This document shows, piece after piece, positions 8,968 to 59,993 of a stretch of DNA of 64,000 bases. The notes below the pieces were generated by a model. That model had not been told where the DNA came from. It did no database searches and saw only the letters and a list, made by a program, of their open reading frames with translations. Both the position numbers and the translations under genes were made by a program. The DNA is from an uncultured virus (IMG/VR IMGVR_UViG_3300042908_000623) (taxonomy: Duplodnaviria > Heunggongvirae > Uroviricota > Caudoviricetes). The stretch lies in IMG/VR virus record IMGVR_UViG_3300042908_000623; one strand, 5' to 3'. How positions within the stretch are numbered: the stretch's first letter is position 1; each line of letters begins with the position of its first letter.

Positions 8968-9843
8968 TCAGACTGCTTTGGCCTGACGTGGTGATTGGCA
9001 AGCGCATTTAGCCGCAAGCCCCTGATCGTTGACGACGTACCCAGCATCACACTTGCCGCAAGTGGTGACAGGCTTAGTCGCTTTCTTTGGTGACTGCTTC
9101 ACGAACTCGGGGAAGAGATCCATGAACGCAAAGTGGTTGTTCGCTTTCATCGGGTATGCTCTTTTGAGCCATGACGGAAACTCTCGTACATGCGAGGCAT
9201 TCGCATTCAGTCGTTTGACAAGTTCACGCATGTCTTTCAGCTTTCCCCACTGATTGAACATACCTGGGTAGGCTTCGTCGAATGCGTCGCCTAAGCTGTC
9301 AATGTCTGCACTCTCGACTACGTGAAGAGGTCTCGGCGCGCGCGCCGGTTCCGTGGTTTCTGTCGTACTCTCTGCCGTACTCTCTGATGTAGTCTCTGTA
9401 GTACTCTTTGCTAATAAGAATGTATGCCCCTTTCGGGCGTTCTTGTATGCCCCTTTTGGGCTTTCCAGTATGCCCCTTTTGGGCATACTGGATTGCTCCT
9501 TTTGGGCATACTGGTCTGCCGCTAAAAGGCATTCTAGGATGTCCATATCAACCCGATAAAAGAGCTTTGCCGGTACGCCTCGAAGCTGCTCAGACCATAA
9601 TGGCTGGTTCTCAAAAGTGATATCACGCAACCTTCGACGAGCAGATTCCTGTTCTTTTCGACTCAACATAGTTTCCTCAAACCACTCGTCCTGAGTCTTC
9701 CAGAACCATCCATCCGGATCTGAGGTCTTGCCAGTCCAGTAGACAGCCTGACTTAACATCAAGCCAGAAGTGACTGATCCTGACAGCTCAGCAAGGCATC
9801 GATGAAACCCAACAGAACGTCCAAGAATCTTGGTCAGATTCAT
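8968..9843 (-). CDS. Replication initiator (lambda O-like position, N-terminal wHTH)
   Basis: LMLSQAVYW..DGWFWKT..EW..ET.LSRKEQ..ARRRL; internal iterons; lies upstream of dnaB. Confidence 0.8.
   Translation of the reverse strand: MNLTKILGRSVGFHRCLAELSGSVTSGLMLSQAVYWTGKTSDPDGWFWKTQDEWFEETMLSRKEQESARRRLRDITFENQPLWSEQLRGVPAKLFYRVDMDILECLLAADQYAQKEQSSMPKRGILESPKGAYKNARKGHTFLLAKSTTETTSESTAESTTETTEPARAPRPLHVVESADIDSLGDAFDEAYPGMFNQWGKLKDMRELVKRLNANASHVREFPSWLKRAYPMKANNHFAFMDLFPEFVKQSPKKATKPVTTCGKCDAGYVVNDQGLAAKCACQSPRQAKAV
9422..9507. repeat. Four iterons with 23-bp period (putative origin of unit A)
   Basis: GTATGCCCCTTTYGGGC at 9422, 9445, 9468 and a variant at 9491, inside the initiator gene. 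Confidence 0.8.
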
Positions 9844-10193
9844 TTCTCATCCTCCTCGAATCCATATCCCGAGCCTGTGCCGTCATTGCGAGCCAGAACT
9901 CCACGCAACGCATTAACACTCGCGCGCGCCACTCGATCACGCTCTTCCAGTGCGCGACCAAGCGCATTAGGGTGAAAGTACGCCTCCGGCATCAAGCCAT
10001 CTTTGGGCAGGTGGCCTAAGCGACCAGACTTCACCGCACCGTTTAACTCGGTGCGTACTGCGCGAGAGATTCTCGCTTCGATGATCCGCACACCCATTAT
10101 GCGGACTATTTCGACGTTTGCTTGGTTGGCCTGAATCTGGCCGATGCTCATCAGGTATCGCACCTGGTCGAAAGCTGCTTGCTGTCCAGTCAT
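9840..10193 (-). CDS. Hypothetical protein between leader RNA and initiator
   Basis: GGAG RBS before ATG 10193; ATGA overlap with the initiator; absent in unit B. Confidence 0.65.
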   Translation of the reverse strand: MTGQQAAFDQVRYLMSIGQIQANQANVEIVRIMGVRIIEARISRAVRTELNGAVKSGRLGHLPKDGLMPEAYFHPNALGRALEERDRVARASVNALRGVLARNDGTGSGYGFEEDEK

Positions 10194-10374
10194 AGTGATC
10201 TCCAAACGCAAAAGCCCTCTGAGAAGAGCGGGCAGGTAAACGTAGAAAGATTTTAGGATTGACGGCCCTAAAACCCTGACCCGCCTTCTCAGAAGGCTTT
10301 CGATAATATGAGTTGTACTGGCACTTACTTTCTACGTTTCGGCCTGCTACTACTGAGCGTCACCCCAGCGGCCA
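10194..10374 (-). ncRNA. Structured cis-regulatory leader of the replication operon (unit A)
   Basis: 5' hairpin, long stem 10211-10300 ending in a U-rich tract, complementary segments that covary with 59102-59266. Confidence 0.75.
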
Positions 10375-10379
10375 GATAC

Positions 10380-10388
10380 ATTATACCA
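10380..10388 (-). promoter_or_regulatory. Extended -10 promoter (TGn-TATAAT)
   Basis: TGGTATAAT; equivalent TGCTATAAT at 59272-59280. Confidence 0.7.
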
Positions 10389-10397
10389 CACTAGCAA

Positions 10398-10482
10398 TGC
10401 AGGCGGCTGGCTTCGAACCAGCGTTTGTCAGAGATGATTGCGCGCTTCCTCTGACCGTCGTGACCAGTTAGACCACGCCCAC
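10398..10482 (-). ncRNA. tRNA-like element with non-canonical anticodon arm
   Basis: Acceptor GTGGGCG/CGCCTGC-A, D arm GTCTAACTGGTCACGAC, T arm GCTGG-TTCGAAG-CCAGC; anticodon arm replaced by a 7-bp stem with a 15-nt loop. Confidence 0.7.
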
Positions 10483-11035: not shown

Positions 11036-11281
11036 CTACACCTGGTCGATAGTCAGATCTGACACCAGATCTGGTATCGACGATATTCTTGCAGGCCTGC
11101 CGCGCTTGAGTAGTGGCGTCTGCTCGACCTCTGCTCTACTGACGGCGCGATAGCTACCAGTCACAGTAGACAGAGAGTAGGGAGTGAGACGGCCAGAGCG
11201 CAACCAGTGATAGATAGTGCTGATTGCGACGCCTTTTGCGGTAGCGGCCTGTCGGATTGTCAAAAGATCAATTTCGTTCAC
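11036..11281 (-). CDS. Excisionase-like HTH regulator, probably leaderless
   Basis: LLTIRQAA..KGV..STIYHWLRSGRL motif; GTG lies 7 nt after a TTGACA-17-GAATGT promoter. Confidence 0.8.
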   Translation of the reverse strand: MNEIDLLTIRQAATAKGVAISTIYHWLRSGRLTPYSLSTVTGSYRAVSRAEVEQTPLLKRGRPARISSIPDLVSDLTIDQV

Positions 11282-11362
11282 GGAGAGAACATTCGAACGA
11301 ACGCGCCCCTTTGTCAAGAATAAAAGTAAACGAATTTTAATAATTTATTTGCAAAATAACTG

Positions 11363-11392
11363 TTGACAATAATCCACGGTCTCCGGTATAGT
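11363..11392 (+). promoter_or_regulatory. Sigma70-type early promoter
   Basis: TTGACA-18-TATAGT with AT-rich upstream region. Confidence 0.8.
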
Positions 11393-21178: not shown

Positions 21179-22066
21179 ATGTCGAATATCCAAAGATACG
21201 AACCAGAACAGCCACGGCAGCTCATCCGCAATGCGGGTGATATGTCCGTAGCTGATGCCGCGAATGACGATCAGGTCATCGCGCTATGGTTGGCGACGAA
21301 GCGCAACACAAAGACCGTGTACCAGTATCAGCTATCAGTGCGTCGCCTCTTCGAGGTGACTGGTCGTCAGATCTGCGAGATGACGCTAAATGACCTGCTG
21401 ATATTCACCGACTCGCTTTCGTCGATGCGTCCGGCAACTCAGGCGCAGCGGATAGCATCGGTCAAGTCGCTGTACAGCTTCTGCCACAAGATCGGATACG
21501 TTCGCGTCAACGTGGCGGCATTGCTCAGAGCACCTCAGAGCAAGGACACTCTCAACGAACGCATCCTGACCGAAGAGGAGGTGCTGAGGCTTACGATGGC
21601 GGCTTGGAGTCCTCGCGACAAGGCACTCATCCGTATGCTGTATCGTACGGCCGGCCGAATATCGGAGGTCGTGACCATCACCTGGGCGGATCTGGTCGTC
21701 AAGCCTGAGCAAGGTCAGGTCACGCTATTCGGCAAAGGCGGCAAGACGCGAGTGGTGCAGATACCATTAACGCTTGTGTCAGCGTTGCAGGATATTCGTG
21801 ACGGGGCAGAGAATAGCGAGCGTATCTTTCCGATCACTCGTCAGAGGGCGTGGAGTATCGTCAAGGCCACGGCGAAGCGCGCAGGCATCACGGACAAGCT
21901 CTCGCCGCACTGGTTCAGGCATAGCCACGCCACACACTCACTCGACCACGGCGCGCCGCTGAAGCTGGTCAGCTCAACGCTGGGTCATTCGTCGATCTCA
22001 ATCACCGATCGATATTTGCACAATAGGCCGGACGAGTCGTCCGGTGATTTTCTTAAAGTTGGTTAA
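21179..22066 (+). CDS. Tyrosine recombinase (XerC/D-like)
   Basis: RISE, GKGGK, HWFRH, LGH, TDRY catalytic set. Confidence 0.92.
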   Translation: MSNIQRYEPEQPRQLIRNAGDMSVADAANDDQVIALWLATKRNTKTVYQYQLSVRRLFEVTGRQICEMTLNDLLIFTDSLSSMRPATQAQRIASVKSLYSFCHKIGYVRVNVAALLRAPQSKDTLNERILTEEEVLRLTMAAWSPRDKALIRMLYRTAGRISEVVTITWADLVVKPEQGQVTLFGKGGKTRVVQIPLTLVSALQDIRDGAENSERIFPITRQRAWSIVKATAKRAGITDKLSPHWFRHSHATHSLDHGAPLKLVSSTLGHSSISITDRYLHNRPDESSGDFLKVG

Positions 22067-59101: not shown

Positions 59102-59266
59102 GTAACCTCCAAACAAAAAGCCCTTTGAGAAAACGGGCAGGTGGGAAACTGGTGATAGGTTGACGGCCTATCGGTTGCCTGACCCGCCTTCTCAAAAGGC
59201 TCATTGATGTTGATATTGCCCAGTTTCCCATGTGGCCTCCGTTGCCGGGCGTCACCCCAGCGGCCA
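59102..59266 (-). ncRNA. Structured cis-regulatory leader of the replication operon (unit B)
   Basis: Same fold as 10194-10374 with compensatory changes. Confidence 0.75.
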
Positions 59267-59279
59267 GATACATTATAGC

Positions 59280-59358
59280 AAAAAATTAGGGGGATTGCTC
59301 CCCCTTCAGTGGAACCAATTGGAGAAAATAACCATGAAACTCCAACGCATTGTTGGAA
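59280..59358 (-). ncRNA. Candidate anti-RBS small RNA
   Basis: 5' hairpin, TTTCATGGTTATTTTCTCCAAT, terminator AGGGGGA-GCAA-TCCCCCT plus T-tract. Confidence 0.55.
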
Positions 59359-59582: not shown

Positions 59583-59861
59583 TTAGGGTTCGTTAGTTCC
59601 CTCGGGCTGCGGGTGAGCGTCCGTTGCCGGTGTCTCTGCGATGTCTGCGGCTTTGGCTGATCGCAACGCACCCGGACGCGCCGTGGTGTCACGAGCTGTC
59701 AGCACAGCCTGCCGGGCAAATAGATATAGTGGGCGACGCTGACCGCCGCGCAGGACATGCACAGCCGTCAGGTGTCCGGCCTTCAGCCAGACCAATATGT
59801 TCTGGCGGGTCGTCCCTGCCAGCTCAGCCGCCTGCGATGATGTCATCAGTTCGTCGTTCAT
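59583..59861 (-). CDS. Excisionase-like HTH regulator, probably leaderless
   Basis: LMTSSQAAELAG.TRQNI..W.K.G.L; ATG lies 7 nt after TTGACA-17-TAGGAT. Confidence 0.8.
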   Translation of the reverse strand: MNDELMTSSQAAELAGTTRQNILVWLKAGHLTAVHVLRGGQRRPLYLFARQAVLTARDTTARPGALRSAKAADIAETPATDAHPQPEGTNEP

Positions 59862-59964
59862 CGCTGCCATCCTACATGTAGATGTCCAATGTGTCAATAG
59901 GAAAATTAGAACAAGGCGGAAAGGCTTACGGTAAATCTTTTTTTAAGGTACAGCTATTTTCTTA

Positions 59965-59993
59965 TTGACAACTAAGGTGACTCGGCATATAGT
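59965..59993 (+). promoter_or_regulatory. Sigma70-type early promoter (unit B)
   Basis: TTGACA-17-TATAGT followed by the same leader as 11363. Confidence 0.8.

Follow-up and report, generated by a model that had tools for sequence, protein, structure and literature searches.

A covarying, pseudoknotted leader RNA ahead of the replication genes of uncultured tailed phages and its possible role in transcription attenuation

Introduction

In phage P4 a leader-derived RNA, CI, pairs with the segments seqA and seqC, which results in premature termination and leaves the replication genes off, and IsrK, another leader that is terminated, targets the read-through form of the same RNA (both as outlined in PMC4825925). 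The heteroimmunity of P1 and P7 is traced, in PMC6906374, to minor nucleotide differences in ImmI. The put RNA of HK022, as presented in PMC9378689, is approximately 70 nucleotides (nt) long, forms two stem-loops and acts in cis, without a dedicated protein, to make polymerase terminator-resistant. Ordinary terminator stems average 7–9 base pairs (bp), and long stems resist processive antitermination, according to PMC10325885. Here we analyse a leader RNA that occurs twice in the uncultured tailed-phage record IMGVR_UViG_3300042908_000623 of IMG/VR, the whole 64,000-nt stretch of which is referred to as the window; the two copies lie on the minus strand at 10373-10204 (unit A) and 59265-59111 (unit B). 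The leader is a well-supported structured RNA family of 41 distinct sequences with four covarying helices, and as judged by the lack of any Rfam match the family appears to be new. The presence of a covarying short helix in a leader before replication genes suggests an RNA gate on phage replication.

Results

Both leaders share one layout, consisting of a promoter, a 5′ domain, a purine-rich segment (a), an unstructured spacer, a long hairpin (stems P1 and P2, with the bulged segment a′), a U-run, GGAG(G) and a start codon. In order of transcription the features are as follows.

Unit A:
10380..10388, minus strand: promoter, extended -10 TGgTATAAT, with no -35 match
10341..10373, minus strand: 5′ domain with outer stem GGCC/GGCC, inner hairpin GCUGGG/CUCAGU (10369-10352) and 3′ internal loop AGUAGCA
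10363-10358, minus strand: loop L1, GUGACG
10328..10339, minus strand: segment a, AAACGUAGAAAG, the 5′ strand of the pseudoknot helix (inverted repeat of 12 nt, 100% complementary)
10275..10299, minus strand: 5′ arm of the long stem P1, containing the self-complementary GCCUUCUGAGAAGGC (10297-10283, 'hp5')
10250..10274, minus strand: apical stem-loop P2, GUUUUAGGG / UCCUAAAAU, with loop L2, CCGUCAA, at 10265-10259
10238..10249, minus strand: segment a′, CUUUCUACGUUU, a 3′ bulge of the long hairpin, with one A (10237) before the P1 3′ arm
10204..10236, minus strand: P1 3′ arm (10236-10212) and U-run UUUUGCGUUU (10213-10204); terminator-like site 10229-10214 plus TTTTGCGTTT in the scan

Unit B:
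59272..59280, minus strand: promoter, extended -10 TGcTATAAT, directly after a terminator-like hairpin (59305-59288)
59234..59265, minus strand: 5′ domain, hairpin GCUGGG-GUGACG-CCCGGC (59261-59244) inside the outer GGCC/GGCC stem
59255-59250, minus strand: loop L1, GUGACG
59220..59230, minus strand: segment a, UGGGAAACUGG, perfect complement of a′
59178..59201, minus strand: P1 5′ arm, containing GCCUUUUGAGAAGGC (59200-59186)
59154..59177, minus strand: internal loop CAACC and P2 (GAUAGG / CCUAUC), with loop L2, CCGUCAA, at 59166-59160
59142..59152, minus strand: segment a′, CCAGUUUCCCA, directly adjoining the P1 3′ arm
59111..59141, minus strand: P1 3′ arm (59141-59119) and U-run UUUUUGUUU (59119-59111)

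A prior inspection of the letters (the sequence-only reading) had proposed four elements, namely a 5′ hairpin, a long stem ending in a U-rich tract, an apical loop complementary to the loop of the 5′ hairpin, and a bulge perfectly complementary to an upstream segment, and all four were located on the minus strand in A and in B. P1 comprises 23 pairs and one bulged U in both units, while a′ forms a one-sided 3′ bulge which is the exact complement of a and lies 0–1 nt from the P1 3′ arm. Loop L2 can make five pairs with the UGACG of L1. The stem ends 6–10 nt before the Shine-Dalgarno sequence, which lies outside the structure. When aligned, the two leaders display a mean column identity of 77%, with identical blocks at the promoter, the 5′ hairpin and P1 and strongly different text at a, P2 and a′.

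Folding calculations placed both leaders well below shuffled sequences in energy (A, z -3.5, 0/200 shuffles as stable; B, z -2.8, 1/200), with computed values of -40 to -47 kcal/mol for the long hairpin and -13.7 to -18 kcal/mol for the a:a′ helix. When the nascent RNA was folded up to a′, a:a′ was the closing helix in six of six sequences tried, which makes it probable that the pseudoknot has already formed by the time the 3′ arm is transcribed. The P1 5′ arm is itself a 6-3-6 palindrome (GCCUUY NGN GAAGGC; self-fold -4.7 to -6.7 kcal/mol), of which the 3′ arm is a degraded copy owing to three conserved G·U pairs. A hairpin within the 3′ arm was considered as the real terminator and set aside, being weak or absent (0 to -5.3 kcal/mol). 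The open reading frame through the hairpin of B is not kept in frame among relatives, giving no indication of a leader peptide, and promoter scans of the two units yielded no conserved antisense promoter.

Pattern scans of IMG/VR and one metagenome scan at the Joint Genome Institute (38 loci) returned 77 matching stretches, representing 43 distinct leaders (numbered L), A and B included. The 5′ domain is present in 41 of these; L344 ends at a contig end and L329 is without a 5′ domain. In the 41 leaders L1 is invariably (A/G)GUGACGC, and a′ ends 0–1 nt before (A)CCUGCCCG in 40. The a:a′ helix amounts to 9–12 contiguous pairs in 39/41 leaders, the others being L149 (7 pairs) and L351 (5 pairs, with an altered a′). 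The L351 leader (L351:938-1096) is the sole one with a broken a:a′, its a′ reading CCCUUACUCA as compared with CCCUUUCCA in the near-identical L324, and could represent either an escape variant or an error in the sequence.

The pairing of a with a′ was assessed without reliance on an alignment. Across the 41 homologues, cognate segments form a mean of 9.98 pairs as against 5.80 in 1492 non-cognate combinations, and shuffling of the a region reached the observed length in 0–16 of 500 trials for 16 of 18 class representatives (L149, 44/500; L351, 440/500). The a′ segment takes on 18 different 9-nt ends, or 17 groups when sorted by 8-mer, and the proposal that a and a′ had undergone wholesale compensatory change between A and B thus extends to 17–18 sequences.

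In a model-fitted alignment of the 41 rows, the pseudoknotted structure is 94.6% paired versus 82.3% in shuffles, and pairing falls to 52–56% when partners are slid by one column. Covariation in further homologues, which had been suggested as a check on the structure, is present: 23 of 46 structure pairs are changed on both sides, and none of 500 shuffles reaches any of five measures. For a:a′, 8/10 counted pairs are changed on both sides and the eight core columns are 84–93% paired, figures which are conservative because the A-type class is out of register for a:a′ in both the MAFFT and the model-fitted alignments. P1 (24 pairs) is 100% paired with four pairs changed on both sides, all variation residing in the loop and closing pair of the 5′-arm palindrome; P2 is likewise 100% paired, with all four counted pairs changed on both sides; and in the 5′ domain the inner stem is 100% paired with 3/4 pairs changed on both sides, as are 4/4 pairs of the outer stem. 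RNAalifold independently recovered P1, P2 and the 5′ hairpin. Both of the helices that cross to form the pseudoknot, a:a′ and P1, are consequently backed by compensatory change.

The polarity of the structure bears on a very improbable alternative, namely that the inverted-repeat arms (the first being the 6-3-6 palindrome GCCTTY NNN RAAGGC) are protein sites in DNA, serving as operator, roadblock or origin element. All 11 distinct full 5′ arms are perfect palindromes that vary only in the centre (L329 being without the arm), and the arm adjoins initiator genes, both of which a protein site would accommodate. Against this, complementarity between the central triplets of the arms is kept in every case, 9 and 20 sequences having changed on both sides, a match that a two-operator model does not need, and a:a′ and P2 covary as RNA helices. 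Moreover, P1 keeps three G·U pairs on this strand alone (GU in 41/41 and 39/41, UG in 38/41), which would be mismatches on the other strand or in DNA and so argue for RNA of this polarity. Nor does the palindrome recur elsewhere in the window, where four matches at no more than one mismatch compare with 1.7 expected and the two exact ones are the leaders themselves.

A conserved promoter accompanies the structure. A -10-like hexamer (at least 5/6) ends 16–18 nt before GUGACGC in 32/32 leaders with enough upstream sequence, 22 of which also have a -35 box (at least 4/6; TTGACA in 21), the other 10 having TGn. This conservation is consistent with the proposal of an RNA structure on the transcribed strand after a promoter. 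The upstream flanks are unrelated between leader classes, indicating that the conserved unit begins at the promoter. Two leaders depart from this arrangement. L169 (L169:537-696) has the same leader as L162; unrelated sequence takes the place of its promoter region, and no -10 candidate is present there. In L329 (L329:1055-1215) a -35 box, TTGACAAATAA, is fused directly to upper P1, this leader lacking the -10, 5′ domain, segment a, spacer and lower 5′ arm, and an O-like gene follows as usual; with these parts missing, the full terminator cannot form.

On the downstream side, the long stem was found, as had been described, to end in a U-rich tract ahead of the ribosome-binding site of the first replication-module gene in a terminator-like manner. 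GGCUUU follows the stem in 43/43 distinct homologues, a motif demanded by the pattern in two scans only, and the spacing from U-run to GGAG to start codon is kept across homologues. The first downstream gene itself varies and includes three O-like initiator types, two families of 117 amino acids (aa) and a helicase-methylase, and the leader always lies in the same orientation directly before a replication-module gene. The 117-aa gene of unit A also follows the leader in L152, L339 and L345, and a second, unrelated family of 111–117 aa does so in L123, L188, L340 and L355.

The diversity of a′ would also be expected under a reading which we regard as possible but unlikely, namely type-specific RNA immunity or replication licensing of the P4 CI or P1/P7 c4 kind, in which the terminated leader acts in trans on nascent leaders of the same type. 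The leader would accumulate in the lysogen and target its own leaders or those of a superinfecting relative, with L1 and L2 nucleating the contact and the 9–12-nt a:a′ code deciding recognition; what happens at the terminator, and with it replication, would then depend on type. Several observations would fit selection on the identity of the helix, beyond pairing alone. The a′ segment falls into at least 17 discrete sequence types, and the same a′ 8-mer occurs on scaffolds with spacer identity down to 0.37 and 5′-domain identity down to 0.61; the type AGUUUCCC, for example, is present in 11 leaders with spacers as low as 37% identical. Leaders that are 92–100% identical in the 5′ domain carry different, compensated a:a′ helices, as in the close pairs L323/L335 and L331/L354, for example, which show single compensated changes. 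Among nine A-type leaders the per-site difference is 0.31 in a and 0.345 in a′, near that of the unpaired spacer (0.29) and approximately three times that of P2 (0.118) or the 5′ domain (0.088), the corresponding value for P1 being 0–0.014. The two units found together in the window carry different a:a′ types, an invariant-loop hairpin followed by a variable strand in both partners is the layout of kissing-initiated antisense pairs, and precedents exist in the accounts of P4 (PMC4825925) and of P1/P7 ImmI (PMC6906374).

Weighing against immunity is the fact that both strands reside in one molecule, such that pairing in cis should win. The window contains no second target beyond chance: A has 3 matches versus 3.2 expected, and B has one extra match with one mismatch, a count reached by 4/100 shuffles. 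P2, which has no role in such a model, also changes wholesale, and the leader has no Rfam C4 match. Units A and B also differ in their protein regulatory regions, which would suffice for co-residence without a different RNA type, and the pairing of the two in the window may have arisen by chimeric assembly instead of reflecting a true double lysogen. We consider it rather unlikely that the leader is an RNA-only, address-coded licensing system of ordinary temperate tailed phages in which two universal loops dock and a 9–12-nt code is drawn from at least 17 interchangeable types. It is equally doubtful that a system of this kind, functionally P4-like, of independent origin and built around an intrinsic terminator, decides per type whether a resident or incoming genome expresses its replication genes.

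With regard to gene context, two related phage genomes lie collinear and in tandem in the window (1-64000). Their homologous points are separated by 48.9 kb and their identity is 68–94% in patches, an arrangement that may reflect either a double lysogen or an assembly in which two strains were joined as a chimera. The genes adjoining the leaders are listed below.

9840..10203, minus strand: unit A GGAG (10203-10200) and first gene (ATG at 10193), 117 aa, no known family
9843-8968, minus strand: unit A O-like initiator, next after the 117-aa gene
8934-7573, minus strand: unit A DnaB-like helicase, following the O-like initiator
11036..11317, minus strand: unit A upstream small HTH_17/MerR-like gene, with a terminator-like site (10509-10491) between gene and leader promoter
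59110-59106 (GGAGG) and 59101 (TTG) to 58178, minus strand: unit B O-like replication initiator (phrog_9773, E 4.5e-37)
59583..59897, minus strand: unit B upstream small HTH_17/MerR-like gene, with terminator-like sites downstream

In unit B the O-like initiator comes directly after the leader, without an intervening 117-aa gene, and every gene that follows the leader, as far as the tail fibres and including those for thymidylate synthase, terminase, portal, head and tail, lies on one strand. An integrase is encoded at 21179-22066, and the closest cultured terminase relatives are approximately 30% identical. Divergent near-consensus promoters (TTGACA, 17–18 nt, TATAGT, plus strand) with short palindromes around them are found at 11339-11392 and 59869-59993, between the small helix-turn-helix gene and the leftward recombination/integrase arm, a region which is probably a protein-based switch region.

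Just upstream of the A promoter, on the minus strand at 10392-10416, the stretch GCUGGUUCGAAGCCAGC CGCCUGC A resembles a tRNA T-arm and 3′ acceptor strand, and ARAGORN identified no tRNA. It is also present in L122, L126 and L339, and in L152 with a changed loop, UUCAAUU, and may represent either the end of a tRNA-like element or an old attachment core. The IMG/VR contig L124 carries a leader identical to that of unit B over the compared stretch, while the metagenome contig L339 carries that of unit A with one change over the compared stretch, its upstream flank being 96% identical.

This context also permits the leader to be viewed as a stand-alone structured small RNA gene with a partner elsewhere (a host RNA, a protein or polymerase), or as a strong insulator or an RNase III site that separates early from replication transcription, its place ahead of the replication genes being then no more than that of a module boundary, a reading that we hold to be improbable. 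It would account for the leader having its own promoter and terminator with unrelated sequence upstream, for the terminator-like sites before the promoter in both units, and for loops that are invariant on variable stems, as for a binding surface; the very long stem, furthermore, resembles antitermination-resistant terminators. Nonetheless, the tight and conserved spacing of U-run, GGAG and start codon links the leader to the downstream gene, as does its constant orientation directly before a replication-module gene, whichever gene that is.

The homologues derive from viral and lake metagenome contigs, and the sequencing runs holding the leader stretch are mostly labelled as lake-water or freshwater metagenomes, with few from soil and wetland. 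Three possible RNA runs and one labelled as a metatranscriptome yielded short contigs alone, probably of DNA, and showed no transcript ends. Among 185,579 species genomes no homologue was found: a 16-nt pattern gave chance matches alone among the matches listed (at least 120), a 19-mer gave 0/18 real matches and a two-part pattern 0/102. A blastn search of GenBank phages produced no match to either leader, and three cultured phages that have O-like homologues, in which the gene is without a long leader, gave no match to the covariance model. Rfam cmscan of the whole window at gathering scores, which had been proposed as a check on novelty, returned no match, so that the novelty stands; with E allowed to reach 10, the two leaders matched unrelated families by chance alone, none of them credibly. 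Neither full-text searches of the literature nor the Rfam scans brought up an account of this leader. In the readable files of a catalogue that lists 8,495 candidate RNAs from IMG/VR (PMC10690425), four motifs are absent, as are six contig identifiers from file 4; part of the hairpin may be listed, unnamed, in the alignments of that catalogue.

Discussion

Based on the findings of this study, the feature is best read as a self-contained promoter-leader-terminator cassette which, in temperate tailed phages, would head the array of replication, nucleotide-metabolism and late genes. We give an even chance to the proposition that the leader represents a new family of pseudoknotted transcription attenuators gating replication and late genes. 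P1 is a G+C-rich hairpin directly followed by a U-run, as expected of an intrinsic terminator, and a 23-bp stem of this stability together with the U-run should terminate transcription; termination at the U-run is thus predicted.

From this arrangement we infer termination at the hairpin, a default-off state, an order of folding and the participation of any factor, as follows. A sigma-70-type promoter would start the RNA at the foot of the 5′ hairpin domain, and polymerase would then make a, the unstructured spacer, the P1 5′ arm (which could first fold as a small 6-bp hairpin), P2 and a′. On emerging, a′ would pair at once with a to yield a pseudoknot whose 3′ strand runs to within 0–1 nt of the P1 3′ arm, and completion of the 23-bp stem beside the U-run would end transcription 6–10 nt before the ribosome site. 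The default product would be a folded RNA of approximately 150–170 nt, with the replication genes off. Expression would require read-through, either by means of a factor blocking lower P1, e.g. by holding the nested 5′-arm hairpin, or through a polymerase made terminator-resistant. The fold, consisting of a:a′ and the probable L1-L2 contact, would be the selected part that sets or senses the decision. Control of transcription is likelier than control of translation, since the stem ends 6–10 nt before an uncovered Shine-Dalgarno sequence; for the same reason, the suggestion that an IncI-type pseudoknot controls translation of the initiator is unlikely to hold.

A number of observations weigh against attenuation. 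The a′ segment is a bulge and lies outside the terminator stem, so a:a′ does not compete with the terminator as a classical antiterminator would, and the route from pseudoknot to altered termination is as yet unexplained by the model. The influence of a:a′ would have to be steric or topological, positional (the 5′ domain against P2) or intermolecular. The nested 5′-arm hairpin, hp5, may be the only candidate structure that competes with the terminator, and a factor holding it would block the lower half of P1, yet it is compatible with 41/41 leaders without covariation. Similarly, the kissing of L1 and L2 that had been envisaged would be possible by pairing in 41/41 leaders, with five standard pairs, of which four never vary and one varies between GC and GU; this lack of covariation speaks neither for nor against a loop contact. 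Among the encoded proteins none was recognised as a candidate antiterminator; the small genes upstream encode HTH_17-like DNA binders, and no N-like arginine-rich small protein was recognised either. In addition, most search patterns fixed GGCGGGTCAGG and CCTGCCCG, which makes the invariance of upper P1 partly a product of the search, whose ascertainment concerns GGCGGGUCAGG; a scan anchored on both loops and the U-run gave at least 10 true matches in 10 loci, all of them known leaders and all with the GGCGGGTCAGG/CCTGCCCG motifs.

Other forms of control were considered and rejected. In A-type leaders a:a′ could extend into the 3′ arm (GCAGG/CCUGC) to give a classical antiterminator, an extension that other classes do not conserve. 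A riboswitch is at odds with junction and linker nucleotides that vary in sequence and length, conservation being limited to the loops and P1.

If the cassette does gate replication genes, it would constitute a compact regulatory module that recombines freely between phages and is placed before several different first genes, at least three types of initiator among them. The pseudoknot helix of the cassette would represent a natural orthogonal set, with at least 17 sequences on one scaffold, and such a set could act as a test bed for RNA pairing in termination control and for RNA-based heteroimmunity beyond P4 and P1. The leader also adds a new RNA family from uncultured freshwater phages, whose structured RNAs are poorly known and whose regulation is otherwise inaccessible.

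Among described systems, the likeness to the P4/C4 family lies in a promoter-driven leader before replication genes with short complementary segments inside it, and that to P1/P7 in complementary segments that differ between heteroimmune relatives. The leader does not match the C4 covariance model, even with E as high as 10, and it differs from that family in having a single complementary pair in place of an antisense segment with upstream and downstream targets, the complement being the bulge of an intrinsic terminator. The analogy to P4 CI and P1 c4 that had been drawn therefore appears to be functional only. Termination in P4 is Rho-dependent and CI is cut out by RNase P, whereas nothing in the sequence of the leader points to processing.

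In the lambda PR′-6S RNA-tR′ arrangement with Q, too, a promoter that is constitutive gives rise to a short, terminated leader RNA similar in size, and the long operon downstream needs antitermination. The lambda leader, however, precedes lysis and structural genes rather than replication genes, to our knowledge it has no covarying pseudoknot, and no Q-like gene was recognised here. In pT181, pIP501 and the IncI-alpha/IncB rep systems, leader RNA structures of initiator genes are found with loop contacts, a pseudoknot or terminator, and specificity groups. These plasmid rep systems use a countertranscript from the opposite strand, for which the present leader has no conserved antisense promoter in the scans. 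The IncI pseudoknot, moreover, is a translational activator that works at the ribosome site, whereas the Shine-Dalgarno sequence of the leader is outside the structure.

HK022 put resembles the leader in being a structured RNA just downstream of an early promoter and ahead of terminators guarding early genes. By the description available, as opposed to sequence, put differs from the leader in that the latter is 150–170 nt long, pseudoknotted and contains the terminator itself, and an antitermination RNA of the put type was rejected on the basis of this difference in size and architecture (PMC9378689). Finally, the stem of the leader shares with TerR of pLS20, as portrayed in PMC10325885, a length far above the 7–9 bp average. 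TerR ends an operon, whereas the terminator of the leader starts one and would do so with a covarying bulge and an apical loop.

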